64,000 nucleotides of DNA from Escherichia coli (GCF_048403405.1 NZ_CP183136.1), one strand, 5' to 3'; positions 4,165 to 32,300 are shown, numbered from the stretch's first letter. The notes: generated by a model not told the origin, from the letters alone. Numbers and translations are program-made.

Positions 4165-4245
4165 GAACTTGAAAATCGCCGATGCAGGGAGCTTGTCCCT
4201 CCCTGCATCGACTGTCCATAGAATCCTTTGTGAGGAGGTTCCTAT
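4165..4245 (-). ncRNA. finP: FinP antisense RNA (approximate bounds)
   Basis: Perfect stem-loop cgatgcagggag-cttgtc-ctccctgcatcg at 4180..4210 in the traJ leader, plus a second hairpin over the traJ RBS and start; bounds inferred. Confidence 0.5.
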
Positions 4246-4938
4246 GTATCCGATGGATCGTATTCAACAAAAACATGCTCGTCAAATCAGATCTGCTGGA
4301 AAATCTGACGGCAGTTATTCAGGATTATCCAAATCCAGCCTGTATCAGGGACGAAACTGGAAAATTTATTTTTTGCAATACGCTGTTTCATGAGTCATTT
4401 CTTACACATAGATCAAAGTGCTGAAAAATGGCTTCTGTCGCAGAGAGATTTTTGTGAATTGATCTCTGTCACAGAGATGGAAGCATACAGGAATGAGCAT
4501 ACGCATCTTAATCTTGTAGAGGATGTTTTTATTCAGAACAGATTCTGGACAATATCTGTCCAGTCATTTCTTAATGGACACAGAAATATTATTACTGGTG
4601 GCAATTTTATGATGCTGCTCATGTTCGTCATAAAGACAGTTATAATCAAAAAACGATTGTCAGTGATGATATCAGAAATATAATCAGAAGAATGAGTGAT
4701 GATTCTTCTGTATCATCATATGTAAATGATGTCTTTTACTTATATAGCACCGGAATCAGTCATAATGCTATAGCAAGAATATTAAATATATCCATCTCCA
4801 CATCAAAGATAACACGCATCTCTGATATGCGACTACTTCTCTGTTTCTAATAAAGATGAGTTAATTATCTTACTCTACAATAAAAAGTTTATTTATTATT
4901 TATACGAGAAGGCTATGTGTATCATAAATACGCGTTAA
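4244..4938 (+). pseudogene. traJ: TraJ transfer activator, multiply frameshifted
   Basis: ORFs 4163..4393, 4182..4424 and 4390..4683 in three frames carry consecutive TraJ-like segments (MYPMDRIQQKHARQI / DLLENLTAVIQDYPNPACIRDETGKF / DQSAEKWLLSQRDFCELISVTEMEAYRNEH). Confidence 0.7.
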
Positions 4939-5030: not shown

Positions 5031-5441
5031 GTGTTATTGAAAAGATTTGGTACACGTTCTGCAACAGGTAAGATGGTAAAACTAAAATTACCTGTAGATG
5101 TGGAAAGTCTATTAATTGAGGCAAGTAACAGAAGCGGAAGAAGTCGATCGTTTGAGGCAGTAATAAGACTTAAAGATCATCTTCACCGCTATCCAAAGTT
5201 TAACAGGGCAGGGAATATCTATGGTAAGTCGCTGGTTAAGTATCTGACAATGCGTCTGGATGATGAAACTAACCAGCTACTTACTTGCAGCCAAAAATCG
5301 TAGTGGATGGTGTAAAACAGATGAGGCATGCAGACAGAGTTATTGATCATTTGATCAAGTTATCCTGATTTTTATAACTCGGAGAAATATTCAGGGAGGC
5401 AGATAGAAGAGGAACGATATCAACATTTAAATACACTCTAG
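5031..5441 (+). pseudogene. traY: TraY (ribbon-helix-helix), apparent frameshift at the 3' end
   Basis: GTG-start ORF MLLKRFGTRSATGKMVKLKLPVDVESLLIEASNRSGRSRSFEAVIRL stops at 5303 while TraY-like coding continues in another frame. Confidence 0.6.
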
Positions 5442-5477: not shown

Positions 5478-5849
5478 TATGAATGCTGTTTTAAGTGTTC
5501 AGGGTGCTTCTGCGCCCGTCGAAAAGAAGTCGTTTTTTTCTAAATTCACTCGTCTGAATATGCTTCGCCTGGCTCGCGCAGTGATCCCGGCTGCTGTTCT
5601 GATGATGTTCTTCCCTGCAGCTGGCGATGGCCGCTGGCAGCAATGGTCACGGACCTGATGGCTAAGCGGTCAGGACCACGGTTAAGGCGACCTTCGGTAA
5701 GGACTCCAGTATCGTTAAATGGGTTGTTCTGGCTGAAGTTCTGGTCGGTGCAGTCATGTACATGATGACCAAAAACGTCAAGTTCCTGGTCGGCTTTGCC
5801 ATACATCTCTGTATTTATTGCTGTGGGTATGGCCGTCGTTGGCTTCTGA
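5478..5849 (+). pseudogene. traA: TraA propilin, frameshifted
   Basis: MNAVLSVQGASAPVEKKSFFSKFTRLNMLRLARAVIPAAVLMMFFP then a frame break; pilin C-terminus ([34 protein letters not shown]) continues in other frames into ORF 5756.. Confidence 0.65.
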
Positions 5850-5863: not shown

Positions 5864-6175
5864 ATGTCGGGAGACGAGAATAAACTTAAGAAATATCGTT
5901 TCCCGGAAACACTGACCAACCAGAGCCGCTGGTTTGGCCTGCCACTGGATGAACTGATCCCCGCAGCAATCTGTATTGGCTGGGGTATCACAACATCGAA
6001 ATATCTGTTCGGTATTGGTGCAGCGGTTCTGGTTTATTTCGGGATTAAAAAACTGAAAAAAGGGCGGGGCAGTTCCTGGTTACGTGACCTGATTTACTGG
6101 TATATGCCAACAGCCCTGCTGCGCGGTATTTTTCATAATGTTCCCGATTCGTGTTTCCGGCAGTGGATTAAATAG
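5864..6175 (+). CDS. traL: TraL, pilus assembly
   Basis: [33 protein letters not shown]..., internal start within ORF 5756..6175. Confidence 0.85.
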
Positions 6176-6196
6176 AACTGATACCAGGATTGTTAT

Positions 6197-6763
6197 ATGG
6201 AACACGGTGCCCGTTTAAGTACCAGTCGTGTAATGGCCATCGCCTTTATATTTATGTCAGTGCTTATTGTTCTCAGCCTCTCTGTTAACGTCATTCAGGG
6301 GGTGAATAACTACCGTCTTCAGAATGAGCAACGCACTGCCGTGACGCCAATGGCATTTAATGCCCCCTTTGCCGTGTCACAGAACAGTGCCGACGCCTCT
6401 TATTTACAGCAGATGGCGCTGTCATTTATTGCCCTCCGTCTGAATGTTTCATCAGAAACCGTCGATGCCTCACATCAGGCGCTTCTGCAATATATCCGCC
6501 CGGGCGCACAGAACCAGATGAAAGTTATTCTGGCTGAAGAAGCGAAGCGTATTAAAAACGATAACGTGAACTCAGCCTTTTTCCAGACCAGTGTTCGTGT
6601 CTGGCCTCAGTATGGCCGTGTGGAAATTCGAGGTGTGCTTAAAACCTGGATTGGTGATTCAAAACCTTTCACTGATATCAAACATTACATCCTTATTCTG
6701 AAGCGGGAAAACGGGGTGACCTGGCTGGATAATTTCGGGGAAACAGACGATGAGAAAAAATAA
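6197..6763 (+). CDS. traE: TraE, pilus assembly
   Basis: 188-aa ORF with N-terminal membrane anchor, position in tra operon. Confidence 0.85.
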
Positions 6764-7478
6764 TACGGCAATAATATTCGGCAGCCTGTTTTTTTCCTGC
6801 AGCGTGATGGCCGCAAACGGTACGCTGGCCCCCACCGTGGTGCCAATGGTGAACGGTGGTCAGGCCAGTATTGCCATCAGCAATACCAGCCCGAATCTGT
6901 TTACCGTTCCCGGTGACCGGATTATCGCCGTGAACAGTCTGGATGGTGCCCTGACCAATAATGAGCAGACCGCCTCCGGCGGTGTGGTGGTTGCCACCGT
7001 CAACAAAAAGCCCTTTACGTTCATTCTGGAAACAGAACGTGGTCTGAATCTTTCCATTCAGGCCGTTCCCCGTGAAGGCGCGGGGCGTACCATTCAGCTG
7101 GTCAGTGACCTGCGCGGAACCGGAGAAGAAGCCGGTGCGTGGGAAACGTCCACGCCTTACGAATCCCTGCTTGTGACCATCAGCCAGGCCGTCCGTGGCG
7201 GAAAATTACCCGCAGGCTGGTATCAGGTCCCAGTGACAAAGGAAACCCTGCAGGCCCCGGCGGGGCTGTCTTCAGTGGCAGATGCCGTATGGACGGGGAA
7301 TCACCTGAAGATGGTCCGCTTTGCCGTGGAAAATAAAACGCTGTCTGCCCTGAATATCCGGGAAAGTGACTTCTGGCAGCCGGGAACCCGTGCCGTGATG
7401 TTCAGCCAGCCTGCCAGCCAGTTACTGGCAGGTGCGCGCATGGATGTGTATGTCATCCGTGACGGGGAGGGCAACTGA
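6750..7478 (+). CDS. traK: TraK, secretin-like
   Basis: 242-aa ORF with signal peptide, overlaps traE stop and traB start. Confidence 0.85.
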
Positions 7479-8905
7479 TGGCCAGTATCAATACCATTGT
7501 GAAACGCAAGCAGTACCTGTGGCTGGGGATTGTGGTTGTCGGTACAGCCTCCGCGATTGGTGGGGCACTGTATCTGTCTGATGTGGACATGTCCGGTAAC
7601 GGTGAAACCGTGGCTGAACAGGAGCCTGTGCCGGATATGACCGGTGTGGTGGATACGACCTTTGATGACAAGGTGCGTCAGCATGCCACCACCGAGATGC
7701 AGGTGACGGCAGCGCAGATGCAGAAGCAGTATGAGGAAATCCGTCGTGAGCTGGATGTTCTGAACAAACAGCGCGGTGATGACCAGCGTCGTATTGAAAA
7801 GTTGGGACAGGACAATGCCGCCCTGGCAGAGCAGGTAAAAGCCCTGGGTGCTAATCCCGTCACGGCGACCGGTGAGCCTGTACCGCAGATGCCTGCCTCA
7901 CCGCCCGGCCCGGAAGGCGAACCACAGCCAGGAAACACCCCCGTATCCTTCCCGCCGCAGGGCAGCGTTGCTGTTCCACCGCCGACGGCGTTTTATCCCG
8001 GGAATGGTGTCACGCCACCACCACAGGTGACGTACCAGTCTGTGCCGGTGCCTAACCGGATACAGCGTAAGGTGTTTACCCGTAATGAGGGAAAACAGGG
8101 ACCATCACTGCCGTACATTCCGTCAGGAAGTTTTGCGAAAGCCATGCTGATTGAAGGGGCGGATGCCAATGCCTCTGTCACCGGTAATGAATCCACGGTG
8201 CCGATGCAGCTGCGTATCACCGGCCTGGTGGAAATGCCGAACAGCAAGACGTATGACGCAACGGGATGTTTTGTGGGTCTGGAAGCCTGGGGGGATGTGT
8301 CCAGTGAGCGTGCCATTGTACGCACCCGCAATATCAGTTGCCTGAAGGACGGCAAAACTATTGATATGCCGATTAAGGGGCATGTCAGCTTCCGGGGTAA
8401 AAACGGTATCAAGGGCGAAGTGGTGATGCGTAACGGCAAAATCCTCGGCTGGGCATGGGGCGCGGGATTTGTTGACGGTATCGGTCAGGGAATGGAGCGC
8501 GCCTCCCAGCCGGCTGTCGGGCTGGGTGCCACAGCCGCTTACGGGGCTGGTGATGTCCTGAAAATGGGTATCGGTGGCGGCGCATCGAAAGCCGCACAGA
8601 CGCTCAGTGACTACTACATCAAACGTGCCGAACAGTATCACCCGGTGATACCGATTGGTGCGGGCAACGAAGTGACCGTGGTGTTCCAGGACGGCTTCCA
8701 GCTGAAAACCGTGGAAGAGATGGCGCTGGAACGCACGCAGAGCAGAGCGGAAGAAGACAATCCGGAAAGTCCGGTTCCTGTTCCGCCATCGGCTGAAAGT
8801 CATCTTAACGGCTTTAATACTGACCAGATGCTGAAGCAGCTGGGCAACCTGAATCCGCAGCAGTTTATGTCCGGCAGCCAGGGAGGGGGCAACGATGGCA
8901 AATAA
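7478..8905 (+). CDS. traB: TraB, VirB10-like
   Basis: 475-aa ORF with coiled-coil and proline-rich region typical of TraB. Confidence 0.9.
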   Translation: MASINTIVKRKQYLWLGIVVVGTASAIGGALYLSDVDMSGNGETVAEQEPVPDMTGVVDTTFDDKVRQHATTEMQVTAAQMQKQYEEIRRELDVLNKQRGDDQRRIEKLGQDNAALAEQVKALGANPVTATGEPVPQMPASPPGPEGEPQPGNTPVSFPPQGSVAVPPPTAFYPGNGVTPPPQVTYQSVPVPNRIQRKVFTRNEGKQGPSLPYIPSGSFAKAMLIEGADANASVTGNESTVPMQLRITGLVEMPNSKTYDATGCFVGLEAWGDVSSERAIVRTRNISCLKDGKTIDMPIKGHVSFRGKNGIKGEVVMRNGKILGWAWGAGFVDGIGQGMERASQPAVGLGATAAYGAGDVLKMGIGGGASKAAQTLSDYYIKRAEQYHPVIPIGAGNEVTVVFQDGFQLKTVEEMALERTQSRAEEDNPESPVPVPPSAESHLNGFNTDQMLKQLGNLNPQQFMSGSQGGGNDGK

Positions 8906-9485
8906 TATGTCGTCCCGTCAGGCGTGCCATGCCGCCCGGTATGTTGTCGCCCGGGTTCTGCGAGGACTGTTCTGGTGTCTGAAGTACACCGTCATTCTGC
9001 CACTGGCCACAATGGCCCTGATGGCTCTGTTTGTTTTATGGAAGGACAACACCACGCCGGGGAAATTACTGGTTAAGGAGATTAACTTCGTAAGACAAAC
9101 AGCACCTGCCGGACAGTTCCCGGTCAGTGAATGCTGGTTTTCTTCCTCTGATTCTTCAGGCAGATCAGAAATACAGGATATCTGCCATTACCGCGCGGCT
9201 GATGCTGCAGATTATGTCAGGGAGACTGACCGGTCACTGATGCAACTGGTCACCGCATTATGGGCAACACTGGCACTGATGTATGTCTCGCTGGCAGCGA
9301 TCACCGGGAAATATCCGGTGCGACCAGGAAAAATGAAATGTATCCGGGTGGTAACCGCAGATGAACATCTGAAGGAAGTTTATACGGAAGACGCTTCCCT
9401 GCCGGGAAAAATCAGGAAATGCCCTGTTTATCTTCCTGATGACAGAACAAACAGAAACAACGGAGATAAAAATGAACATGCGTAA
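8895..9485 (+). CDS. traP: TraP
   Basis: 196-aa membrane protein after traB. Confidence 0.75.
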   Translation: MANNMSSRQACHAARYVVARVLRGLFWCLKYTVILPLATMALMALFVLWKDNTTPGKLLVKEINFVRQTAPAGQFPVSECWFSSSDSSGRSEIQDICHYRAADAADYVRETDRSLMQLVTALWATLALMYVSLAAITGKYPVRPGKMKCIRVVTADEHLKEVYTEDASLPGKIRKCPVYLPDDRTNRNNGDKNEHA

Positions 9486-9669
9486 TATTAATGTTATTAC
9501 AGCCCTCTCTGTGCCGGGTAAAACCGTGTCAGATGATTTTATGCATGCTGTTCTCAGTAACTGCGCCACAAGAATCGTACTTCCTGCACCGGAGAAATTC
9601 GGTTCTGAGTCATTGCCGGACAATTTTAATATGACTGCTGTCGGTGTGATGAAGAATTCAGAAATATAA
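9472..9669 (+). CDS. trbD: TrbD
   Basis: Small ORF MNMRNINVITALSVPGKTV... between traP and trbG. Confidence 0.6.
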   Translation: MNMRNINVITALSVPGKTVSDDFMHAVLSNCATRIVLPAPEKFGSESLPDNFNMTAVGVMKNSEI

Positions 9670-9680
9670 GGAACCCTTCG

Positions 9681-9932
9681 ATGAATAAGCTGGTTTCTGA
9701 TGGCAGCGTCAAAAAAATAAATTATCCGGTGCTGTATGAGTCCGGAATAACACCTCCGTTATGTGAAGTCAGTGCACCAGAACCTGATGCGGGTGGGAAA
9801 CGCATTGTGGCATATGTTTATAAATCATCACGGAGTACGGTTTTTGAAAATCCTGACATTGTAAAAACCTGTACGGTCAGGGATTTGAAGAAGGATTTTG
9901 TGAACTGCGATGAGAAAGGTGAGGGACAATGA
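9681..9932 (+). CDS. trbG: TrbG
   Basis: 83-aa ORF before traV, gene order. Confidence 0.65.
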   Translation: MNKLVSDGSVKKINYPVLYESGITPPLCEVSAPEPDAGGKRIVAYVYKSSRSTVFENPDIVKTCTVRDLKKDFVNCDEKGEGQ

Positions 9933-10444
9933 AACAGATTTCTTTCTTTATTCCTCTGCTGGGGACCTTATTACTTTCCGGCTGTGCCGGAACCAGTACG
10001 GAATTTGAGTGTAACGCCACCACATCCGATACCTGTATGACGATGGAGCAGGCCAATGAGAAGGCCAAAAAACTGGAGCAGTCCTCAGAAGCAAAGCCGG
10101 TTGCGGCATCACTGCCGCGCCTGGCTGAAGGGAACTTCCGGACAATGCCGGTGCAGACCGTCACCGCGACCACTCCGTCCGGCAGCAGACCTGCGGTGAC
10201 AGCACATCCGGAGCAGAAACTGCTGGCACCTCGCCCGCTGTTTACCGCTGCCCGGGAAGTGAAAACGGTTGTTCCGGTCAGTTCAGTTACGCCGGTAACA
10301 CCTCCTCGTCCGCTAAGAACGGGTGAGCAGACGGCAGCATTATGGATAGCGCCTTATATTGATAACCAGGATGTTTATCATCAGCCATCCAGCGTGTTTT
10401 TTGTTATTAAACCGTCTGCGTGGGGAAAACCACGTATTAATTAA
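9929..10444 (+). CDS. traV: TraV lipoprotein
   Basis: Lipobox LLLSGC, 171 aa, proline-rich. Confidence 0.85.
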   Translation: MKQISFFIPLLGTLLLSGCAGTSTEFECNATTSDTCMTMEQANEKAKKLEQSSEAKPVAASLPRLAEGNFRTMPVQTVTATTPSGSRPAVTAHPEQKLLAPRPLFTAAREVKTVVPVSSVTPVTPPRPLRTGEQTAALWIAPYIDNQDVYHQPSSVFFVIKPSAWGKPRIN

Positions 10445-10578
10445 CTGGCCCTGAAGTTGTATATCAGCCGGCAATGCCGGCGGGCTTTCTGTATTCAAAA
10501 TCCGCCTGTAAAACGAGTGCCCTGTGCGTGAAAAGGGATGGGCGGTAGCGTGTCAGAACATGTCGGGAGGAATATTCC

Positions 10579-10800
10579 GTGAGTGATGAAGCCGATGAAG
10601 CATATTCAGTGACAGAACAACTGACCATGACAGGAATAAACCGGATACGCCAGAAAATAAATGCTCATGGTATTCCTGTTTATCTCTGTGAAGCATGCGG
10701 AAATCCTATTCCGGAAGCCCGGCGGAAAATATTTCCCGGTGTGACGTTGTGCGTTGAATGTCAGGCGTATCAGGAAAGACAGAGAAAACATTATGCATAA
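10579..10800 (+). CDS. traR: TraR, DksA-like zinc-finger protein
   Basis: 73 aa with CEACGNPIP...CVECQ zinc-finger motif. Confidence 0.85.
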   Translation: MSDEADEAYSVTEQLTMTGINRIRQKINAHGIPVYLCEACGNPIPEARRKIFPGVTLCVECQAYQERQRKHYA

Positions 10801-10959
10801 GTCAGTCGCAGAACATAGTGATTTAATTCCGGATGAACATGAGTGGATATTCAGAAAACAGAAATCTTTGTATATGCGCCGGGAAATGGCGCGTTAATTA
10901 CAGGTATTCCCTTCATGGCTACCGCATTTCTCGCTTTATTTTTCAACTAAGGAATTCAT

Positions 10960-13587
10960 GTGAATAACCCACTTGAGGCCGTCACTCAGGCGGTTAACTC
11001 CCTCGTCACAGCACTGAAACTGCCTGACGAATCCGCAAAGGCCAATGAAGTTCTGGGCGAAATGAGCTTCCCGCAGTTCAGCCGTCTGCTGCCGTACCGT
11101 GATTACAACCAGGAATCCGGTCTGTTCATGAATGACACCACGATGGGCTTTATGCTGGAAGCCATCCCCATCAATGGGGCGAATGAGTCCATTGTGGAGG
11201 CCCTCGATCACATGCTGCGCACCAAACTGCCGCGCGGTATTCCGTTGTGTATCCATCTGATGTCCAGTCAGCTGGTTGGTGACAGGATTGAATACGGGCT
11301 GCGTGAGTTCTCCTGGTCAGGTGAACAGGCTGAACGGTTTAACGCCATTACCCGGGCCTATTATATGAAAGCGGCAGCGACACAGTTTCCGCTGCCGGAG
11401 GGGATGAATCTGCCCCTGACCCTGCGCCATTACCGGGTGTTTATCTCGTACTGTTCTCCTTCGAAGAAAAAAAGCCGGGCCGACATTCTGGAAATGGAAA
11501 ACCTGGTGAAAATCATCCGGGCGTCGTTACAGGGGGCCAGTATCACCACACAGACGGTGGATGCACAGGCCTTTATCGATATTGTCGGGGAGATGATTAA
11601 CCATAACCCGGACTCCCTGTACCCGAAAAGACGTCAGCTGGACCCGTATTCTGATCTGAATTATCAGTGTGTGGAGGACAGTTTTGATCTGAAAGTCCGG
11701 GCTGATTACCTGACGCTGGGCCTGCGTGAGAACGGCAGGAACAGCACGGCCCGCATCCTGAATTTCCATCTGGCCCGTAACCCGGAAATCGCCTTCCTGT
11801 GGAACGTGGCCGACAACTACAGCAACCTGCTGAACCCGGAACTGTCCATCTCCTGTCCGTTCATCCTGACGCTGACTCTGGTGGTGGAAGACCAGGTGAA
11901 AACCCACAGCGAAGCCAACCTGAAGTACATGGACCTGGAGAAAAAGTCGAAGACCTCCTATGCCAAATGGTTTCCGTCCGTGGAGAAAGAGGCGAAGGAG
12001 TGGGGGGAACTGCGTCAGCGGCTGGGCTCCGGTCAGTCCTCCGTGGTGTCCTACTTCCTCAACATCACAGCATTCTGCAAGGACAATAATGAAACGGCGC
12101 TGGAAGTGGAGCAGGACATCCTGAACAGCTTTCGTAAAAACGGTTTTGAGCTGATTTCACCGCGCTTTAACCACATGCGCAATTTCCTGACCTGCCTGCC
12201 CTTTATGGCCGGGAAAGGGCTGTTTAAACAGTTGAAAGAGGCCGGAGTGGTTCAGCGCGCAGAGAGCTTTAATGTTGCCAACCTGATGCCGTTAGTGGCG
12301 GATAACCCCCTGACACCGGCAGGTCTGCTGGCACCCACCTACCGTAACCAGCTGGCGTTTATCGATATTTTCTTCCGGGGGATGAATAACACCAACTACA
12401 ACATGGCGGTCTGTGGCACCTCCGGGGCCGGTAAAACCGGGCTGATACAGCCACTTATCCGCAGCGTGCTGGACTCCGGAGGCTTTGCCGTGGTGTTCGA
12501 CATGGGGGATGGATACAAGTCCCTGTGTGAGAACATGGGCGGGGTGTATCTGGACGGTGAAACCCTGCGTTTTAACCCGTTTGCGAACATCACCGATATT
12601 GACCAGTCAGCGGAGCGTGTCCGTGACCAGTTGTCAGTGATGGCCAGCCCCAACGGTAACCTGGATGAAGTGCATGAAGGTCTGCTGTTGCAGGCGGTCA
12701 GAGCCTCCTGGCTGGCCAAAGAGAACAGAGCACGTATTGATGACGTGGTGGATTTCCTGAAAAACGCCAGTGACAGCGAGCAGTATGCCGAGTCACCGAC
12801 TATCCGCAGCCGTCTGGACGAAATGATTGTGCTGCTTGACCAGTACACTGCCAACGGCACTTACGGCCAGTATTTTAACTCTGATGAGCCGTCCCTGCGG
12901 GATGACGCAAAAATGGTGGTGCTGGAGCTGGGCGGACTGGAAGACCGTCCGTCACTGCTGGTTGCGGTGATGTTCTCCCTGATTATCTACATCGAGAACA
13001 GGATGTACCGCACGCCGCGTAACCTCAAGAAACTGAACGTTATTGATGAAGGCTGGCGTCTGCTGGACTTCAAAAATCACAAGGTCGGTGAATTTATTGA
13101 GAAAGGCTACCGTACGGCCCGCCGTCATACCGGTGCCTATATCACCATCACACAGAACATCGTCGACTTTGACTCTGATAAGGCCTCCAGTGCTGCCCGC
13201 GCGGCATGGGGTAACTCCTCCTACAAAATTATCCTCAAACAGAGTGCGAAGGAGTTCGCGAAATACAACCAACTGTATCCGGACCAGTTCCTGCCACTGC
13301 AGCGCGACATGATTGGTAAGTTTGGTGCGGCCAAAGACCAGTGGTTCAGTTCCTTCCTGCTGCAGGTGGAAAACCATTCCTCCTGGCACCGTCTGTTTGT
13401 GGACCCGTTAAGCCGCGCCATGTACAGCTCTGACGGCCCGGATTTTGAGTTTGTGCAGCAGAAGCGTAAAGAGGGGCTGAGTATTCATGAGGCAGTGTGG
13501 CAGCTGGCGTGGAAGAAGTCAGGGCCGGAAATGGCTTCGCTGGAAGCCTGGCTGGAAGAACATGAGAAATACAGGAGTGTGGCATGA
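10960..13587 (+). CDS. traC: TraC, VirB4-like ATPase
   Basis: 875-aa ORF with Walker A GTSGAGKTG. Confidence 0.95.
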   Translation: MNNPLEAVTQAVNSLVTALKLPDESAKANEVLGEMSFPQFSRLLPYRDYNQESGLFMNDTTMGFMLEAIPINGANESIVEALDHMLRTKLPRGIPLCIHLMSSQLVGDRIEYGLREFSWSGEQAERFNAITRAYYMKAAATQFPLPEGMNLPLTLRHYRVFISYCSPSKKKSRADILEMENLVKIIRASLQGASITTQTVDAQAFIDIVGEMINHNPDSLYPKRRQLDPYSDLNYQCVEDSFDLKVRADYLTLGLRENGRNSTARILNFHLARNPEIAFLWNVADNYSNLLNPELSISCPFILTLTLVVEDQVKTHSEANLKYMDLEKKSKTSYAKWFPSVEKEAKEWGELRQRLGSGQSSVVSYFLNITAFCKDNNETALEVEQDILNSFRKNGFELISPRFNHMRNFLTCLPFMAGKGLFKQLKEAGVVQRAESFNVANLMPLVADNPLTPAGLLAPTYRNQLAFIDIFFRGMNNTNYNMAVCGTSGAGKTGLIQPLIRSVLDSGGFAVVFDMGDGYKSLCENMGGVYLDGETLRFNPFANITDIDQSAERVRDQLSVMASPNGNLDEVHEGLLLQAVRASWLAKENRARIDDVVDFLKNASDSEQYAESPTIRSRLDEMIVLLDQYTANGTYGQYFNSDEPSLRDDAKMVVLELGGLEDRPSLLVAVMFSLIIYIENRMYRTPRNLKKLNVIDEGWRLLDFKNHKVGEFIEKGYRTARRHTGAYITITQNIVDFDSDKASSAARAAWGNSSYKIILKQSAKEFAKYNQLYPDQFLPLQRDMIGKFGAAKDQWFSSFLLQVENHSSWHRLFVDPLSRAMYSSDGPDFEFVQQKRKEGLSIHEAVWQLAWKKSGPEMASLEAWLEEHEKYRSVA

Positions 13588-13970
13588 GTTCAACGCAGAA
13601 ACCCGCCGACGTCATGGCAGAACGACGCAGCCACTGGTGGTGGACGGTGCCGGGATGCCTGGCAATGGTGTTACTGAACGCAGCCGTCAGTTACGGCATT
13701 GTCAGACTGAACGCACCGGTGACTGTCGCCTTCAACATGAAACAGACCGTGGATGCGTTTTTTGACAGAGCCAGTCAGAAACAACTGTCAGAAGCGCAGT
13801 CAAAAGCCCTTTCAGCGCGTTTTAACACGGCACTGGAAGCCAGCCTGCAGGCGTGGCAGCAGAAACACCACGCGGTCATTCTGGTGTCGCCTGCTGTGGT
13901 ACAGGGGGCACCGGATATCACCCGGGAAATCCAGCAGGATATTGCCCGGCGAATGAGGGCGGAACCATGA
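13584..13970 (+). CDS. trbI: TrbI
   Basis: 128-aa ORF overlapping traC stop. Confidence 0.8.
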   Translation: MSSTQKPADVMAERRSHWWWTVPGCLAMVLLNAAVSYGIVRLNAPVTVAFNMKQTVDAFFDRASQKQLSEAQSKALSARFNTALEASLQAWQQKHHAVILVSPAVVQGAPDITREIQQDIARRMRAEP

Positions 13971-14599
13971 GATGCCGGGGGCTGATTGCCCTGCTGATAT
14001 GGGGGCAGAGTGTGGCCGCCGCCGATCTTGGTACCTGGGGCGATCTGTGGCCGGTAAAGGAGCCGGACATGCTGACGGTGATCATGCAGCGCCTGACGGC
14101 ACTGGAGCAGTCCGGTGAGATGGGCCGGAAAATGGATGCCTTTAAGGAGCGGGTGATCCGCAACAGTCTGCGGCCCCCTGCCGTGCCCGGTATCGGACGC
14201 ACGGAGAAATACGGCAGCCGGTTGTTTGACCCGTCCGTCAGACTGGCTGCGGATATCCGGGATAACGAAGGGCGGGTGTTTGCCCGTCAGGGTGAAGTGA
14301 TGAATCCGCTGCAGTATGTTCCTTTTAACCAGACGCTGTATTTCATCAATGGCGATGATCCGGCGCAGGTGGCCTGGATGAAACGCCAGACGCCGCCCAC
14401 ACTGGAGAGCAAAATTATCCTCGTGCAGGGCAGTATCCCGGAGATGCAGAAGTCTCTGGACAGCCGTGTTTACTTTGACCAGAACGGTGTGCTCTGCCAG
14501 CGCCTCGGCATTGATCAGGTCCCGGCACGGGTGAGCGCCGTTCCCGGCGATCGCTTCCTGAAGGTGGAATTTATTCCGGCAGAGGAGGGCAGAAAATGA
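13967..14599 (+). CDS. traW: TraW
   Basis: MRCRGLIALLIWGQSVAAADLG signal peptide; internal start of ORF 13853..14599. Confidence 0.85.
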   Translation: MRCRGLIALLIWGQSVAAADLGTWGDLWPVKEPDMLTVIMQRLTALEQSGEMGRKMDAFKERVIRNSLRPPAVPGIGRTEKYGSRLFDPSVRLAADIRDNEGRVFARQGEVMNPLQYVPFNQTLYFINGDDPAQVAWMKRQTPPTLESKIILVQGSIPEMQKSLDSRVYFDQNGVLCQRLGIDQVPARVSAVPGDRFLKVEFIPAEEGRK

Positions 14600-15588: not shown

Positions 15589-15593
15589 GGTGA

Positions 15594-21287: not shown

Positions 21288-22660
21288 ACCTCTTCTGGTT
21301 CTTTGTGCTGCTTTACTGACGGTCACACCCGCAGCGTCAGCGGATGTGAACAGCGACATGAATCAGTTCTTTAACAAGCTGGGCTTCGCCTCCAATACCA
21401 CCCAGCCGGGCGTCTGGCAGGGGCAGGCCGCCGGCTATGCTTACGGTGGCTCCCTGTATGCCCGTACTCAGGTTAAAAATGTTCATCTGATTTCCATGAC
21501 GCTGCCGGATATCAATGCCGGATGTGGCGGCATCGACGCCTATCTCGGCTCGTTCAGCTTTATTAATAGCGAGCAGTTGCAGCGTTTTGTTAAGCAGATT
21601 ATGAGCAATGCTGCCGGTTACTTCTTTGACCTTGCCCTGCAGACAACGGTGCCGGAAATCAAAACCGCAAAAGACTTCCTGCAGAAAATGGCAAGCGACA
21701 TTAACAGTATGAACCTCAGTTCCTGCCAGGCGGCACAGGGGATTATCGGCGGGCTTTTCCCCCGGACGCAGGTGTCCCAGCAGAAAGTCTGTCAGGACAT
21801 TGCCGGTGAGAGCAATATTTTTGCTGACTGGGCTGCTTCCCGGCAGGGATGTACCGTTGGCGGGAAATCTCGACAGCGTCAGGGATAAAGCCAGCGACAA
21901 GGATAAGGAGCGGGTGACCGAAAAACATCAACATCATGTGGAATGCGCTTTCCAAAAACAGAATGTTTGACGGCAACAAAGAGCTGAAAGAGTTTGTGAT
22001 GACGCTGACCGGCTCACTGGTGTTTGGTCCCAGACGGCGAAATCACACCGCTATCGGCGCAGAACCACTGACCGCTCATATTATCCGGGCCATGATGGAA
22101 GGCGGTACAGCAAAAATTTATCACTGCAACGATTCTGACAAATGCCTGAAAGTGGTGGCAGACACACCGGTGACCATCAGCCCGGGATAATGCACTGAAG
22201 TCTCAGATTACTAAACTTCTGGCCAGCATTCAGAACAAGGCTGTCAGTGACACGCCTCTGGATGACAAGGAAAAAGGCTTTATTTCCAGTACCACCATCC
22301 CCGTCTTCAAATACCTGGTTGACCCGCAGATGCTCGGTGTTTCCAACAGTATGATTTACCAGCTGACGGACTATATCGGTTACGACATCCTGCTGCAGTA
22401 CATTCAGGAGCTGATACAGCAGGCCCGGGCGATGGTGGCCACCGGGAAATTATCGACGAAGCAGTTATCGAACAGTATTAACTGGACAATATGAATGATG
22501 CCACCGCGGCAGATTGCGGCGTTTCCAGTCACAGGTACAGGTGCAGCAGGATGCGCTGCTGGTCGTCGACCGTCAGATGAGCTACATGCGTCAGCAGCTT
22601 TCCGCCCGCATGCTCAGTCGTTACCAGAACAACTATCACTTCGGAGGGAGCACGCTGTGA
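21271..22660 (+). pseudogene. traH: TraH, frameshifted
   Basis: N-terminal 205 aa in ORF 21271..21888; later TraH-like segments (MWNALSKNRMFDGNKELKEF..., NDSDKCLKVVADTPVTIS) lie in other frames; total span is not a multiple of 3. Confidence 0.7.
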
Positions 22661-25348
22661 ATGAAGTTTATGTGATTGCCGGTGGTGAATGGTTGCGGAA
22701 TAACCTGAACGCCATTGCCGCCTTTATGGGAACCAGGACGTGGGATTCCATTGAAAAAATTGCTCTCACCCTGTCTGTTGTTGCGGTGGCCTTTATGTGG
22801 GTACAGCGGCACAACGTGATGGATTTGCTGGGCTGGGCGGCGGTGTTTGTGCTTATCAGCCTGCTGGTTAATATCCGTACGTCGGTGCAGATTATTGATA
22901 ACAGTGACCTGGTCAAAGTCCATCGGGTGGATAATGTGCCGGTCGGACTGGCGATGCCACTTTCACTGACGACCCGTATCGGGCATGCAATGGTGGCCAG
23001 TTACGAGATGATCTACACGCAACCGGACAGTTTCACCTACAGCAAAACGGGGATGCTGTTTGGCGCAGAACCTGGTATGCAAAAAGCACCGACTTTTTGT
23101 CCCGCAATCCGGAAATCGCCAATCTTTTTCAGGATTATGTGCAGAACTGTGTGATGGGGGATATTTACCTGAACCACAAATACACGCTGGAGGAGCTGAT
23201 GGCCTCCGCTGATCCCTACACGCTGATTTTTTCCCGCCCCAGTCCGCTGCGGGGCGTTTATGACAGCAATAATAATTTCGTGACCTGTAAGGACGCGTCG
23301 GTTTCGCTGAAAGACAAGCTGAATCTGGACACACAGACGTGGCGGCAAAACCTGGCATTATTATGTGCAGCAGATATTTGGCGGTCAGCCCGGATCCGGA
23401 CCTGTTATTCAGTGCAACTGGTTGAGTGACAGTTACCGTTATTTCTACGGCTCCAGCCAGTCTGCCAGTCAGATCATGCGCCAGAACGTCACCATGAATG
23501 CGCTGAAGGAGGGTATCACCAGTTATGCAGCCCGTAACGGTGACTACCGCCAGCCTGGTGAATCTGGCCACCACGTCATCGATGGAGAAGCAACGTCTGG
23601 CACATGTCTCCATTGGTCATGTGGCTGATGCGAAACACTGCCGATGGCGCAGACCATTCTGGTGGGCATTACCATCGGTATTTTCCCGCTCCTGGTACTG
23701 GCGGCTGTCTTCAACAAACTGACGCTGTCTGTTCTGAGAGGCTATGTGTTTGCCCTGATGTGGTTGCAGTCATGGCCAATGTTGTATGCCATTCTGAACA
23801 GCGCCATGACATTTTATGCGAAGCAGAATGGTGCACCGGTGGTGCTCTCGGAAATTTCACAGATACAGCTGAAATACTCCGATCTGGCTTCCACTGCCGG
23901 GTATCTTTCCATGATGATACCCGCCATTATCCTGGATGATGGTCAGAGGCCTTGGCGCCGGTTTTTCCAGCGTGTACAGCCATTTCGCTTCCTCTGCTAT
24001 CAGCCCGACTGCCAGTGCGGCAGGCAGTGTGGTTGACGGTAATTACTCCTACGGCAACATGCAGACGGAAAACGTGAACGGCTTCAGCTGGAGCACCAAC
24101 AGCACCACGTCGTTTGGTCAGATGATGTACCAGACCGGCAGTGGCGCAACTGCCACACAGACCCGTGACGGTAATATGGTGATGGATGCAAGCGGAGCGA
24201 TGTCCCGTTTACCGGTTGGTATCAATGCAACGCGTCAGATTGCAGCGGCACAACAGGAAATGGCCCGGGAGGCGTCGAACAGAGCAGAAAGCGCCCTGCA
24301 TGGTTTCAGCAGCAGTATTGCCAGTGCCTGGAACACGCTCAGTCAGTTTGGTTCTAACCGGGGGAGCAGTGATTCTGTCACCGGTGGCGCTGACAGCACC
24401 ATGAGTGCACAGGACTCCATGATGGCCAGCCGTATGCGCAGTGCAGTGGAAAGCTATGCGAAGGCGCATAATATCAGTAATGAGCAGGCGACTCAGGAAC
24501 TGGCATCAACAGGTTCTAGGTTCTCGTCTGGCGGAATGTATGCAGATGCTCATGCTGAATGGGGGATTAAACCTGAAATTCTTGGTGTTGGTGGTGGGGT
24601 TGGTGTCAGAGGCGGGTTTAAGGGAAGTCTTGGATGCGAACGGATGATGACTCACATTCTGCAAGTAGTGGCAGCAGAGCTACCCATGATGCTCGCCATG
24701 ATATTGACGCTAAAGCCAGTACAGGACTTTAAAGAAGCCAGCGATTACTTTACCAGTCGCAAGGTCAGTGAGTCCGGCAGCCATACTGACAATAATGCTG
24801 ACTCCCGGGTGGACCAGTTGTCTGCAGCCCTGAACTCAGCGAAACAGAGTTACGACCAATACACGACGAATATGACCCGCAGCCATGAATATGCGGAAAT
24901 GGCCTCCCGTACTGAAAGCATGAGCGGGCAGATGAGTGAAGACCTGTCGCAACAGTTTGCACAGTATGTGATGAAACGCGCACCGCAGGATGCAGAAGCT
25001 ATTCTGACAAATACCAGTTCGCCGGAGATTGCAGAACGTCGTCGGGCGATGGCATGGTCTTTTGTGCAGGAACAGGTACAGCCTGGTGTTGATAATGCCT
25101 GGCGGGAATCCCGTGGCGATATTGGTAAAGGAATGGAGAGCGTACCTTCGGGTGGTGGCAGTCAGGATATTATTGCTGACCATCAGGGACATCAGGCCAT
25201 TATTGAGCAAAGAACGCAGAACAGTAATATCCGTAATGATGTAAAACATCAGGTTGATAATATGGTCACAGAATATCGTGGCAATATCGGAGATACTCAG
25301 AACAGTATCCGTGGCGAGGAAAATATTGTAAGACGGGCAGTATTCTGA
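22657..25348 (+). pseudogene. traG: TraG, mating-pair stabilisation / entry exclusion, multiply frameshifted
   Basis: Starts at GTG (VNEVYVIAGGEWLRNNLNAIAAF); successive segments in ORFs 22495..23154, 23097..23429, 23365..23628, 23644..24036 and 23936..25348 in different frames. Confidence 0.7.
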
Positions 25349-25502
25349 ACTGCAAAATCATCATAAAACAGGAGGCATTATCTACAGAATAATAAATATA
25401 ATGAAGAGCAAGAAACGTCAGAAGATTAATACCTGACGCCATCAGAAGAGGCTGTGAAAACAGATGGTGGATGATAAGAAGGATACGACTGAAGGGGCCA
25501 TT

Positions 25503-25911
25503 ATGATCACTCACTATGATATAAAAACGGAGACACAGAAACTAAAGGATGTACTCTCTGTAGAGGGAGTTAATATTCCGCCATTATTACAAGTCATAAA
25601 GCCAGGGAACTGTATGTGTTTTTATGGGTTTTATTATGGCCAACTTTTCTGCGTTTAGCTATCAGTTAAAAGTTGATGTCCGGGATGCTGGCTTTGATAT
25701 ATGTGCTAGTGGCATGATGGGGTTCCTCCTTTTTGTGGCCATTACAAATGGAATGATGTTATACCTTGCGATTCCTGATAGTTTCAGAAATGAGTCGAAA
25801 ATAATAACTTTTATGTATGATAAGAACAAAACTTATATCTTGTCGTTTGTGATTGTTTTTTCTATGGTTTCCTTTGCTGCATACGTATCTTATTTGGGTT
25901 TTTGCATCTAA
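25503..25911 (+). pseudogene. traS: TraS-like entry exclusion protein, possible frameshift
   Basis: Hydrophobic ORFs 25464..25658 and 25624..25911 in two frames between traG and traT; identification by position only. Confidence 0.4.
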
Positions 25912-26036
25912 TGATTACTATTCGTAATTATTTCTCTTGGTGTATACCATAGATATAAATCGTTATAATCTCTCTGCAATAGTCTCAGTAATAGGTCTGT
26001 TCAAAAAAGAGTCTGTTAGTTAAAAGGATATTCTGG

Positions 26037-26768
26037 ATGAAAACAAAAAAATTGATGATGGTTGCACTGGTCAGTTCCACTCTGGCCCTTTCAGGGTGTG
26101 GTGCGATGAGCACAGCAATCAAGAAGCGTAACCTTGAGGTGAAGACTCAGATGAGTGAGACCATCTGGCTTAAACCCGCCAGCGAACGCACGGTATTTCT
26201 GCAGATCAAAAACACGTCTGATAAAGACATGAGTGGGCTGCAGGGCAAAATTGCTGATGCTGTGAAAGCAAAAGGATATCAGGTGGTGACTTCTCCGGAT
26301 GCAGCCTACTACTGGATTCAGGCGAATGTGCTGAAGGCCGATAAGATGGATCTGCGGGAGTCTCAGGGATGGCTGAACCGTGGTTATGAAGGCGCAGCTG
26401 TTGGTGCAGCGTTAGGTGCCGGTATTACCGGCTATAACTCAAATTCTGCCGGTGCCACACTCGGTGTAGGCCTTGCTGCTGGTCTGGTGGGTATGGCTGC
26501 AGATGCGATGGTGGAAGATGTGAACTATACCATGATCACGGATGTGCAGATTGCAGAGCGTACTAAGGCAACGGTGACAACGGATAATGTTGCCGCCCTG
26601 CGTCAGGGCACATCAGGTGCGAAAATTCAGACCAGTACTGAAACAGGTAACCAGCATAAATACCAGACCCGTGTGGTCTCAAATGCGAACAAGGTTAACC
26701 TGAAATTTGAAGAGGCGAAGCCTGTTCTCGAAGACCAGCTGGCCAAATCAATCGCAAATATTCTCTGA
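26037..26768 (+). CDS. traT: TraT, surface exclusion / serum-resistance lipoprotein
   Basis: 243 aa, lipobox LALSGC, matches TraT from recall. Confidence 0.9.
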
Positions 26769-27032
26769 TTATCTTCCGGAGGCTGGTCTGACCGGCCTCC
26801 TGACTGACGCCTCGCTTTGCTCGTTGTCCAACCCCGGAAAGAAATAAAATAAATTTTATTTCTCCCCGGCGTTTCCGAAATAAATATGAAAACACTGAGC
26901 GGTTGTGCAAATTCTTTGTGCGACCGTGAAGTGTTGCCGGCGAAGCCCGGAATTCTGAACGTGATTATTGAATCTTATTGCGATACGATGTGAATAATCA
27001 GTCCGACTGACTTTTTTCTTCGGAATATCATC

Positions 27033-29367
27033 ATGAGTTTTAACGCAAAGGATATGACCCAGGGCGGTCAGATTGCGTCCATGCGTATCCGCATGTTCAG
27101 CCAGATCGCCAATATCATGCTTTACTGCCTGTTTATTTTTTTCTGGATACTCGTTGGTCTGGTTTTATGGGTAAAAATAAGCTGGCAGACGTTTGTGAAC
27201 GGCTGTATTTACTGGTGGTGTACCACGCTGGAAGGCATGCGGGATTTAATCAAGTCCCAGCCGGTATATGAGATCCAGTATTACGGCAAAACCTTCCGGA
27301 TGAACGCTGCTCAGGTACTGCATGATAAATATATGATTTGGTGCGGAGAGCAGCTATGGTCCGCATTCGTTCTGGCCACAGTTGTGGCACTGGTTATTTG
27401 CCTGATTACCTTCTTTGTTGTCTCCTGGATTCTGGGGCGTCAGGGTAAACAACAGAGCGAAAATGAAGTCACAGGTGGTCGTCAGCTGACAGACAATCCG
27501 AAAGACGTTGCCCGGATGCTGAAAAAAGACGGCAAGGACTCCGATATCCGGATTGGCGACCTGCCGATTATCCGGGATTCCGAAATCCAGAACTTCTGTC
27601 TGCACGGCACGGTCGGGGCCGGTAAGTCGGAGGTTATCCGTCGTCTGGCCAACTACGCCCGTCAGCGCGGTGATATGGTGGTGATTTATGACCGTTCAGG
27701 GGAATTTGTTAAAAGTTACTATGATCCCTCCATCGATAAAATCCTGAATCCGCTGGATGCCCGCTGTGCCGCATGGGATTTGTGGAAGGAGTGCCTGACA
27801 CAGCCGGATTTTGATAATACCGCAAATACTCTGATCCCGATGGGTACAAAAGAGGACCCGTTCTGGCAGGGTTCAGGACGTACCATTTTTGCGGAAGCGG
27901 CGTACCTGATGCGTAATGACCCCAACCGCAGCTACAGCAAACTGGTGGACACACTGCTTTCCATCAAAATCGAAAAACTGCGTACCTTCCTGCGTAATTC
28001 ACCGGCGGCCAACCTGGTGGAAGAGAAAATCGAGAAAACGGCGATTTCCATCCGTGCTGTGCTGACCAACTACGTGAAAGCCATCCGTTACCTGCAGGGG
28101 ATTGAGCATAACGGTGAGCCCTTCACCATCCGTGACTGGATGCGTGGTGTCCGGGAAGATCAGAAAAACGGCTGGCTGTTTATCTCATCGAACGCCGACA
28201 CCCATGCCTCCCTGAAGCCGGTGATCTCCATGTGGCTGTCCATTGCCATTCGTGGTCTGCTGGCAATGGGAGAAAACCGTAAACGTCGTGTGTGGTTTTT
28301 CTGTGACGAGTTACCCACGTTACACAAACTGCCGGATCTGGTGGAGATCCTGCCGGAAGCCCGTAAGTTCGGTGGCTGTTATGTGTTTGGTATCCAGTCC
28401 TATGCCCAGCTGGAAGATATCTACGGTGAGAAAGCGGCGGCCACGCTGTTTGACGTCATGAACACCCGTGCTTTTTTCCGTTCTCCCGAGCCATAAGATT
28501 GCAGAGTTCGCTGCCGGTGAGATTGGTGAGAAAGAGCACCTGAAAGCCAGCGAGCAGTATTCCTACGGTGCTGATCCGGTACGTGACGGGGTATCGACCG
28601 GTAAGGATATGGAGCGTCAGACGCTGGTCAGTTATTCCGACATTCAGTCTCTGCCGGATCTGACCTGCTATGTCACTCTGCCCGGACCGTATCCGGCAGT
28701 AAAACTCTCTCTGAAATATCAGGCACGACCGAAGGTCGCTCCGGAGTTTATTCCGCGTGACATCAACCCGGAAATGGAGAACCGTCTGAGTGCCGTACTT
28801 GCCGCAAGGGAAGCAGAAGGTCGTCAGATGGCCAGCCTCTTCGAACCGGAGGTTGCCTCCGGAGAAGATGTGACTCAGGCTGAACAGCCACAACAGCCAC
28901 AACAGCCACAACAGCCACAACAGCCACAACAGTCACAACAGCCACAACAGCCACAACAGCCACAACAGCCACAACAGCCACAACAGCCACAACAGCCACA
29001 ACAGCCACAACAGCCACAACAGCCACAACAGCCACAACAGCCACAACAGCCACAACAGCCACAACAGCCACAACAGCCACAACAGCCAGTGTCTCCTGCC
29101 ATCAACGATAAGAAGTCAGATGCAGGTGTGAGTGTTCCGGCAGGGGGGATCGAGCAGGAGCTGAAAATGAAACCGGAAGAAGAGATGGAACAGCAACTGC
29201 CACCCGGGATCAGTGAATCCGGTGAAGTGGTGGATATGGCCGCTTATGAGGCATGGCAACAGGAAAATCATCCGGACACCCAGCAGCAGATGCAGCGTCG
29301 TGAAGAGGTGAACATTAATGTGCACCGGGAGCGCGGGGAGGATGTTGAGCCGGGAGATGATTTCTGA
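27033..29367 (+). pseudogene. traD: TraD coupling protein, one frameshift near 28480
   Basis: ORF 27033..28496 (Walker A GTVGAGKS) and ORF 28468..29367 (continuing ...[23 protein letters not shown]) are adjacent TraD segments in different frames; contains the QQP repeat. Confidence 0.75.
28885..29086 (+). repeat. 9-bp tandem repeat (cagccacaa), about 22 units, encoding the TraD C-terminal QQP tract
   Basis: Directly visible periodicity, with one variant unit cagtcacaa. Confidence 0.9.
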
Positions 29368-32300
29368 TGTTGAGTTTCAGCGTTGGTTAAATCGGCAGGC
29401 AGTGCCGGAAACTATTACACCGACAAGGATAATTACTATGTGCTGGGCAGCATGGGAGAACGCTGGGCTGGTCAGGGGGGCTGAACAGCTTGGGACTGCA
29501 GGGCAGCGTCGATAAGGATGTTTTTACCCGTCTTCTGGAGGGCAGGCTGCCGGACGGAGCGGATTTAAGCCGCATGCAGGATGGCAGTAATAAGCATCGT
29601 CCCGGCTACGACCTGACCTTCTCCGCCCCCAAAAGTGTCTCCATGATGGCCATGCTCGGGGGCGATAAACGCCTGATTGATGCACATAACCAGGCCGTGG
29701 ATTTTGCTGTCCGTCAGGTGGAGGCGCTGGCTTCCACACGGGTGATGACGGACGGACAGTCAGAAACGGTGCTGACCGGTAATCTGGTGATGGCACTGTT
29801 TAACCATGACACCAGTCGCGATCAGGACCCACAGTTACACACGCATGTAGTGGTGGCTAATGTCACGCAGCATAACGGCGAGTGGAAGACACTGAGCAGT
29901 GACAAAGTGGGGAAAACCGGATTTATCCGAGAACGTGCTACGCGAACCGGATTGCGTTCGGGAAGATCTATCAGAGTGAGTTACTGTCAGCGCAGGTTGA
30001 GGCGCTGGGTTATGAAACCGAAGTGGTCGGTAAGCACGGTATGTGGGAGATGCCGGGCGTACCGGTGGAGGCCTTTTCCAGTCGTTCACAGGCTATCAGG
30101 GAGGCCGTCGGTGAAGACGCCTCGCTGAAATCCCGGGATGTGGCGGCACTGGATACGCGAAAATCCAAACAGCACGTCGATCCGGAAATCAGAATGGCTG
30201 AATGGATGCAGACGCTGAAGGAAACCGGGTTCGACATCCGGGCATATCGTGACGCGGCGGATCAGCGTGCGGAGACCCGCACGCAGGCGCCCGGGGCTGT
30301 TTCACAGGAGGGGCCGGATGTGCAGCAGGCGGTGACACAGGCCATTGCCGGATTAAGTGAACGAAAAGTGCAGTTTACGTACACGGACGTGCTGGCCAGA
30401 ACGGTCGGTATACTGCCGCCGGAAAATGGTGTGATTGAACGGGCACGCGCCGGTATCGATGAGGCCATCAGTCGTGAGCAGCTTATCCCCCTCGACCGTG
30501 AGAAGGGGCTGTTCACATCAGGAATTCATGTGCTCGATGAGCTGTCCGTCCGGGCACTCAGTCGTGACATCATGAAACAGAACCGGGTGACCGTACATCC
30601 GGAGAAAAGTGTCCCCCGGACGGCTGGTTACAGCGATGCGGTCAGTGTTCTGGCACAGGACCGTCCGTCGCTGGCCATTGTGTCCGGGCAGGGCGGTGCA
30701 GCCGGGCAGCGTGAGCGGGTGGCTGAACTGGTCATGATGGCCCGGGAGCAGGGGCGGGAGGTGCAGATTATCGCTGCTGACCGTCGCTCGCAGATGAACC
30801 TGAAGCAGGATGAACGGCTGTCCGGTGAGCTGATAACCGGACGTCGTCAGCTGCAGGAGGGCATGGTCTTCACGCCGGGCAGTACTGTTATCGTCGACCA
30901 GGGCGAAAAACTCTCCCTGAAAGAGACGTTAACCCTGCTGGACGGTGCCGCACGTCATAACGTACAGGTCCTGATAACCGACAGCGGGCAGCGAACCGGT
31001 ACAGGCAGTGCGCTGATGGCCATGAAGGATGCCGGGGTGAACACGTATCGCTGGCAGGGCGGAGAACAGCGACCGGCAACCATCATCAGTGAACCGGACC
31101 GGAATGTCCGCTATGACCGGCTGGCCGGAGATTTTGCGGCCAGCGTGAAAGCCGGAGAAGAGAGCGTGGCACAGGTCAGCGGGGTACGGGAACAGGCCAT
31201 ACTGACACAGGCCATTCGCAGTGAGCTGAAAACACAGGGCGTGCTCGGACACCCGGAGGTGACCATGACCGCCCTGTCACCGGTCTGGCTGGACAGCCGG
31301 AGCCGTTATCTGCGGGATATGTACCGACCGGGGATGGTGATGGAGCAGTGGAACCCGGAGACACGCAGTCATGACCGCTATGTTATCGACCGGGTGACGG
31401 CGCAGAGTCACAGCCTGACCCTGCGGGATGCGCAGGGCGAAACGCAGGTGGTGCGTATTTCCTCCCTGGACAGCAGCTGGTCGCTGTTCCGGCCGGAAAA
31501 AATGCCGGTGGCAGACGGCGAGCGACTGAGGGTGACAGGGAAAATTCCCGGACTCCGCGTCTCCGGCGGTGACCGCCTGCAGGTGGCATCCGTCAGTGAA
31601 GATGCGATGACGGTTGTTGTGCCGGGGCGGGCTGAACCGGCCACCCTGCCTGTGGCTGATTCACCGTTCACGGCACTGAAGCTGGAGAACGGCTGGGTGG
31701 AAACGCCCGGGCATTCCGTCAGTGACAGTGCGACGGTGTTTGCCTCCGTCACACAGATGGCAATGGACAACGCCACCCTGAACGGTCTGGCCCGCAGCGG
31801 TCGTGATGTCCGGCTGTATTCCTCACTGGATGAAACCCGTACTGCGGAAAAACTTGCCCGCCATCCCTCCTTTACGGTGGTTTCTGAGCAGATAAAGGCG
31901 CGGGCCGGTGAGACATCGCTGGAAACCGCTATCAGTCTGCAGAAAACCGGGCTGCACACGCCGGCACAGCAGGCCATTCATCTGGCCCTTCCTGTGCTGG
32001 AAAGTAAAAACCTGGCCTTCAGCATGGTGGACCTGCTGACAGAGGCGAAGTCGTTTGCTGCAGAAGGAACCGGTTTTACTGAACTGGGAGGGGAAATCAA
32101 TGCGCAGATAAAACGCGGTGACTTACTGTATGTGGATGTGGCAAAAGGCTATGGCACAGGCCTGCTGGTTTCTCGTGCGTCGTATGAGGCAGAAAAAAGT
32201 ATTCTTCGCCATATTCTCGAAGGTAAGGAGGCGGTCACGCCGCTGATGGAGAGAGTACCCGGCGAACTCATGGAGACGTTAACGTCGGGACAGCGTGCCG

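Follow-up and report, generated by a model that had tools for sequence, protein, structure and literature searches.

Frameshifts across the transfer region of an F-like Escherichia coli plasmid are very probably consensus errors from two merged templates

Does the transfer region at this locus belong to an F-like plasmid that has lost conjugation through frameshifts, or do the frameshifts come from the way in which the sequence was built? The window, i.e. the whole stretch of 64,000 nucleotides analysed here (Escherichia coli, GCF_048403405.1, NZ_CP183136.1), contains the overlapping out-of-frame ORFs that the initial annotation had described. The two TraD pieces (27033–28496 and 28468–29367) and the two TraI pieces (29490–30128 and 30023–34645) are present in the ORF list, and TraG is represented by multiple out-of-frame ORFs between 22495 and 25348. 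Two readings had been offered for these breaks: a plasmid without pilin, TraJ or functional relaxase, unable to transfer, or local assembly indels. From the comparisons below, the frameshifts are very probably consensus errors that arose by merging two different F-like transfer regions into one sequence, and almost certainly they are not a real biological feature.

Over 1–38.9 kb, the window is collinear with the annotated E. coli plasmids pK71-77-2 and pHK17a, which identifies it as an F-like plasmid. This part covers the end of the leading region, oriT and the whole tra operon, in the order SLT gene, oriT, traM, traJ, traY, traA, traL to trbF, traH, traG, traS, traT, traD, traI, traX, alpha/beta hydrolase gene and finO; from oriT/traM to traX/finO, this is the canonical F-like gene order. 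The segment from 37 to 64 kb corresponds to IncFII plasmids with a size of about 69 kb and a microcin B17 operon, such as pJKHS004_3. We used three plasmids as references: pK71-77-2 (NZ_CP040885; reference A), the closest public plasmid; pHK17a (NC_016039; reference B), which represents a second F-like type, IncFII; and pJKHS004_3 (NZ_CP147071; reference C), a natural plasmid of a third lineage. The 3' part of the transfer region and the backbone are 98.7–98.9% identical to pHK17a and pJKHS004_3. At a coarse scale, an A-like 5' tra region is joined to a B/C-like traI–finO segment and an IncFII/mcb backbone. This layout may be either a real recombinant or a chimeric contig.

The annotated genes of reference A were mapped onto the window through the BLAST alignment in order to count the extra bases in each gene. 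The features concerned are as follows.

1213–1604, no strand: intergenic leading-region stretch upstream of yubP; 30 insertion events, type A sequence with type B bases added
1613–2435, plus strand: yubP (DUF932); one extra base, a G at 1892, frame broken
2732–3324, minus strand: SLT-domain transglycosylase gene (orf169/gene 19 homologue); two insertions, at 2762 and 2815
3327–3570, no strand: oriT region; eight single-base insertions, at 3375–3443 and 3570
3665–4048, plus strand: traM; without indels, B-type alleles, 23 nucleotide differences from A
4244–4938, plus strand: traJ; five single-base insertions (4288, 4409, 4594, 4597, 4810), no substitution relative to A
5037–5441, plus strand: traY; nine inserted bases, no substitution relative to A
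5479–5849, plus strand: traA (pilin); five insertions (5616, 5650, 5663, 5671, 5803)
5864–21287, plus strand: traL to trbF, the clean block; a single substitution relative to pK71-77-2, indels absent
21274–22660, plus strand: traH; 13 inserted bases and one substitution relative to A, the inserted bases being B alleles at A/B SNP sites
22657–25506, plus strand: traG; 24 inserted bases, A and B alleles interleaved at a fine scale
25503–26023, plus strand: traS (entry exclusion); 11 inserted bases, with A and B alleles mixed at about 50:50
26037–26768, plus strand: traT; intact, no indels
26948–26992, no strand: traT–traD intergenic stretch; 13 single-base insertions in 45 bases
27033–29367, plus strand: traD; one inserted G at 28488, ORF split
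29367–34645, plus strand: traI; eight single-base insertions at 29379–29977, inside the relaxase domain
34665–35411, plus strand: traX; intact, no indels

Ten genes are out of frame: yubP, the SLT gene, traJ, traY, traA, traH, traG, traS, traD and traI. All the genes previously reported as broken do carry insertions: traJ, traY, traA, traH, traG, traD and traI have between 1 and 24 extra bases each and none keeps an intact frame, and yubP, said to show the same pattern, has its single inserted G. Absent from that list were traS and the SLT gene, as well as the insertions in intergenic DNA and around oriT, including three clusters at 1213–1604 (30 events), 3375–3570 beside oriT (8 insertions) and 26948–26992 (13 insertions), so that the phenomenon is wider than first noted. 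The genes given as intact (traL to trbF, traT and traX) are indeed free of indels relative to A, as is traM. The nic-site core of oriT, GGTGTGGTGCTTT, is found intact as an exact match at 3327–3339 on the minus strand. Beyond its insertions, the remaining 4.6 kb of traI are clean and of type B/C. The traD gene also holds an in-frame array of QQP repeats (28883–29088, 22.9 copies of a 9-bp unit).

Relative to reference A, the first 34 kb of the window display 524 substitutions. There are 150 insertion events, which add 174 bases in all, against only 8 deletions. These differences are confined to three zones (about 1–5.9 kb, 21.87–26.99 kb and 28.49–29.98 kb), in agreement with the clustering of breaks reported initially, and between 5804 and 21870 there is one substitution and no indel. 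Most of the inserted bases are not in a homopolymer context: among 132 single-base insertions, 100 lie outside any homopolymer (run length 1), 21 are in runs of length 2, 8 in runs of length 3 and 3 in runs of length 4, i.e. only 11 are in runs of at least 3. A homopolymer-length error of the ONT, 454 or Ion type, or slippage, is excluded by this context. Programmed frameshifting was also set aside, as insertions occur equally in intergenic DNA and reach 24 per gene. Per kb, non-coding DNA carries more insertions than coding DNA, with 31 versus 6 in the first zone and 53 versus 9 in the second.

When the inserted bases are deleted, open frames return in all ten genes. The repaired traJ and traY have no nucleotide difference from A, the repaired traH has one, and the repaired yubP has one nucleotide and no amino acid difference. 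The repaired traG retains one stop codon; keeping the B-side base in place of the A-side base removes it, and this residual stop is thus explained by which of the two bases was deleted. With 150 insertions against 8 deletions, and no substitution in traJ and traY, such an insertion-only spectrum beside 16 kb of near-identity is not, as far as sequence comparison can tell, the product of mutational decay. Given the intact nic core and the return of all the broken genes to known intact alleles, nothing justifies describing the plasmid as devoid of pilin, TraJ or relaxase. The claim of a non-transmissible plasmid therefore finds no support: deleting the inserted bases gives intact genes that match known functional alleles, and on this comparison the inference of transfer deficiency is unwarranted.

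Then, we examined where the inserted and substituted bases come from, using a three-way alignment of the window with references A and B. From traH to traT, about 640 sites are variable: the window carries the A base at 417 sites and the B base at 211 sites, while only 8 sites are private to the window and 4 are three-way. The same restriction to A or B alleles is found in 1.6–6.3 kb and 27–31.5 kb, and nearly all the substitutions relative to A are the B allele. The affected zones are thus composed of two templates. At sites where A and B differ, the inserted bases carry the allele that was not chosen, and both alleles stand side by side at roughly one in ten A/B differences. For example, where A has CCCA-ACGG and B has GAAG-ACAG, the window has CCCAGACGG; where A has GACT-C and B has GATA-C, it has GACTAC. 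In the DNA upstream of yubP, the A sequence is interspersed with entire B-type strings, and the strings inserted at 1213–1604 match pHK17a (e.g. GCAGATCCTGCACATCAGAG, TCAGGTCAATAATGAG, AGCC, CAGAAA and GATGAG). In the 26948–26992 stretch, the A sequence is contained in the window as a subsequence. We know of no biological process that puts both alleles of a SNP in tandem.

We asked how often an isolated single-base insertion repeats the allele of the other parent at a neighbouring A/B SNP, and this was the case for 37 out of 43. In a null model with insertions simulated at random in the same zones (2,000 simulations per zone), the mean total was about 2.5, and the count observed in each zone was reached in none of its 2,000 simulations. 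The alternation between parents is also very fine, with 99–113 runs of A or B alleles in about 4 kb, and with 88 runs in 2.7 kb for a mean tract length of about 30 bp. The zones with this mosaic are exactly those with the insertions. Under a simple adjacency rule, 27 inserted bases, mostly in multi-base runs, are explained neither by A nor by B or C, which suggests that the true second template differs somewhat from these three references. For traJ and traY, reference C was considered in the role of second template and rejected, as it has the same traY allele as A and cannot explain the insertions there; in this zone, the second template may be pHK17a-like or of another type.

The same test was applied to two natural plasmids, with the following results.

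Window: 8 private substitutions, 4 three-way sites, no deletion, alternative-allele insertions 24 out of 34, 99 runs
Reference C (natural): 307 private substitutions, 57 three-way sites, 13 deletions, alternative-allele insertions 0 out of 40, 93 runs
p2005FS026 (natural, close to A): 4 private substitutions, no three-way site, no deletion, no alternative-allele insertion, 1 run (a single A-run)

The number of A/B runs was discarded as a sole marker of artefact: because the natural plasmid C gives 93 runs, the switch count alone is not diagnostic and is no evidence by itself. Our argument rests on three features taken together, namely few private substitutions, alternative-allele insertions and absence of deletions. 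The window alone combines few private changes, about 100 switches, no deletion and 24 alternative-allele insertions out of 34. A third lineage would carry private changes, and a recent natural recombinant would carry few switches; the two features together fit only a fine-scale mixing of two templates, judging from these alignments.

We also searched for the insertion pattern in public sequences. It was not found by megablast in PLSDB (at least 5,000 records), where the best identity was 95.9% over 21.5–30.5 kb and 95.9% over 1–6.2 kb. For 24.4–26.1 kb, the best PLSDB megablast match among those listed had 95.3% identity and belonged to the other plasmid type (IncFII plasmids of about 70 kb, e.g. 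pHK17a). Among complete RefSeq E. coli genomes (3,251 records), the best megablast match to 21.8–26.1 kb had 94.5% identity. Exact-protein look-ups of two chimeric ORFs gave no match, and exact 53-mer scans of metagenome and genome collections found no sequence sharing the insertions. Many further plasmids match a 3.5–28.4 kb query with a score equal to that of A. The errors are thus absent from the independent records of the lineage that were searched, with 94.5–95.9% identity in the noisy zones versus one substitution in the 16 kb clean block.

These observations give a precise form to the earlier suggestion of local assembly indels. This suggestion is strongly supported, the indels being almost all insertions with the allele of a second F-like template, and the artefact is now specified as a putative mixed-template consensus rather than generic indels. 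We infer that the cause lies in an assembly or polishing step and that the underlying plasmid or plasmids have intact tra genes. The templates would be of the pK71-77-2 type (A) and of the IncFII pHK17a/pJKHS004_3 type (B/C). Two co-resident or co-sampled plasmids would share an identical traL–trbF block, which the assembler would collapse, and the reads leaving this block into homologous but divergent flanks would pile up together on one backbone. Wherever both templates were recruited, the consensus caller would choose the A or the B allele site by site. If the caller or aligner prefers a base over a gap, the minority allele would be added as an insertion at some SNPs, and alleles would be flipped elsewhere; keeping both alleles would produce single-base insertions with almost no deletions, hence the frameshifts.

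Such a mechanism, in which a base competing with a gap is kept, would account for the bias towards insertions and for the way in which they follow A/B divergence, being densest in intergenic DNA and in traS and lacking where A and B agree. It would also account for the clean centre and the sharp boundaries of the zones. The clean 16 kb from traL to trbF imply that only one sequence contributed there, the second template being presumably identical or not recruited. A second template that was pHK17a-like throughout would make 6–21.8 kb noisy too, given the divergence of about 3.4% between A and B in that stretch. The model therefore needs an extra assumption at this point, namely that the second template was identical to A or was not recruited in this block.

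Could the lesions nevertheless be real? A plasmid in genuine decay, i.e. a non-transmissible remnant without TraJ, TraY, pilin, TraH, TraG, TraS, TraD and relaxase, would have for it that the frameshifts are present in the deposited sequence, that degenerate F-like tra regions exist in nature and that the IS903-like insertion found elsewhere in the window represents a true lesion. Bacterial mutation is usually deletion-biased, and the ratio of 150 insertions to 8 deletions goes in the opposite direction. Nor does decay account for 5 and 9 insertions in traJ and traY with no substitution beside 16 kb with one substitution, for insertions mostly outside homopolymers and denser in non-coding than in coding DNA, for inserted bases that are the allele of the other plasmid type in 37 cases out of 43, or for the fact that not one zone is shared by any relative among the thousands searched. 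We therefore consider decay extremely unlikely. It is even harder to believe that the insertions are real because a process in the cell, such as repeated template switching between two co-resident F-like plasmids during DNA synthesis associated with conjugation or recombination, copied both alleles in tandem at mismatched sites and left a transfer-dead tra region; of all the readings, this one would be the least credible.

Random sequencing noise, from low-coverage uncorrected PacBio or ONT reads of a single natural A/B recombinant and with no second template, is very unlikely as well. Long-read consensus can be insertion-rich, with residual errors clustered in difficult regions (PMC8812927), and the coarse layout, A-like in the 5' tra region and B/C-like in the 3' tra region and backbone, could be a natural mosaic. 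However, noise would not reproduce the allele of the other parent beside SNPs (37 out of 43, versus about 2.5 expected), and it predicts deletions and private substitutions, while only 8 deletions were seen, and 8 private substitutions from traH to traT. In a natural recombinant, 99–113 parent switches in about 4 kb with almost no private changes would also be unexpected. An in vivo patchwork, i.e. a real fine-scale mosaic left by homeologous recombination between two co-resident F-like plasmids and by patchy mismatch repair after it, with only the insertions as artefacts, seems even less likely than noise. It agrees with the B alleles that make up almost all the substitutions relative to A, and mosaicism is frequent in the tra genes of F-like plasmids. 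Against it stand the mean tract of about 30 bp (88 runs in 2.7 kb), the absence of such a mosaic from any public plasmid searched and the exact coincidence of the mosaic and insertion zones, which points to one common cause.

In its gene order, the window is identical to the F-like (MOBF12/MPF-F) transfer regions of pK71-77-2 and pHK17a; it differs from the other members by its ten out-of-frame genes and by inserted bases that are present in no other member. It resembles the degenerate tra regions of non-conjugative virulence plasmids in the apparent loss of several essential tra genes. Natural tra remnants contain deletions, IS insertions and truncations, and these are inherited by relatives, whereas the lesions of the window are single-base insertions only, unique, and reversible to known intact alleles. 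The closest likeness is with the collapsed-repeat or mixed-haplotype consensus errors of long-read and hybrid assemblies: errors occur only where the sequence is shared with or homologous to another replicon, alleles from both templates are found mixed together, the unique sequence stays free of errors and genes become frameshifted “pseudogenes”. According to the Polypolish paper, residual assembly errors concentrate in repeats, and typical residual long-read errors are homopolymer-length indels (PMC8812927). The window departs from the latter, with 100 out of 132 single-base insertions outside homopolymers and with the allele of the other template.

An annotation that took the sequence at face value would list ten tra pseudogenes on an F-like plasmid and class it as non-conjugative and non-mobilisable, with misleading consequences for plasmid typing, mobility prediction and pseudogene statistics. 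A diagnosis that needs no reads is to align a suspect sequence with two divergent relatives and to look for differences made up of insertions only, for a near absence of private substitutions and for inserted bases equal to the allele of the other relative beside a SNP.

Outside the affected zones, the small indels between the window and reference C over 31–64 kb are balanced, with no excess of insertions, so that the anomaly is local. The biological content is ordinary, that of an F-like plasmid of the IncFII microcin-B17 type with probably intact tra genes. The window also carries, elsewhere, a real IS903-like insertion.

At its 3' end, the tra region was compared with pK71-77-2 (NZ_CP040885), the closest public plasmid, and with the IncFII plasmids pHK17a (NC_016039) and pJKHS004_3 (NZ_CP147071).

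35470-36330: alpha/beta hydrolase gene (286 aa) between traX and finO
28883-29088: tandem array of a 9-bp QQP-encoding unit, 22.9 copies, in the TraD C-terminal region

The hydrolase gene lies between traX and finO in pHK17a and pJKHS004_3, as in the window, whereas pK71-77-2 lacks it. The tra 3' end is therefore of the IncFII type, while the traL-trbF block is of the pK71-77-2 type. Between traT and traD (26769-27032), the window follows the pK71-77-2 layout and lacks the 738-bp hypothetical gene found there in pHK17a and pJKHS004_3, even though traS and traI on either side are pHK17a-like. This layout is a further sign of either template switching or recombination in the 3' tra region. The QQP array is in frame and exceeds its counterparts in pK71-77-2 and pHK17a by about 144 bp; its length may reflect natural repeat variation or an expansion made by the same mixed-template consensus as the tra frameshifts.

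Downstream lies an IncFII backbone, which has its repA gene at about 39.7-40.6 kb and carries a microcin B17 operon.

43469-48251, minus strand: microcin B17 operon, homologues of mcbG, F, E, D, C and B
48287-49343: IS903/IS102-like element (IS5 family; 1,057 bp) within the 5' end of mcbB

The ORF lengths of this operon are those of pJKHS004_3, with the sole exception of mcbB, a microcin B17 synthetase gene split near its 5' end by a clean insertion. The element encodes a 322-aa transposase and has 18-bp inverted repeats (GGCTTTGTTGAATAAATC) and flanking 9-bp target-site duplications (48278-48286 and 49344-49352; AAATGTAGG). In contrast to the tra frameshifts, this insertion looks like a genuine lesion, one that would probably stop microcin B17 production.

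Finally, a diverged repeat of about 450-650 bp, probably of the ssi/Frpo type, is present in three copies in the leading region.

498-1148: leading-region repeat
58167-58605: leading-region repeat
61474-61925: leading-region repeat

These copies share 84-97% identity and also match several sites in the reference plasmids. The copy at 498-1148 sits where the window has insertions and deletions relative to pK71-77-2.
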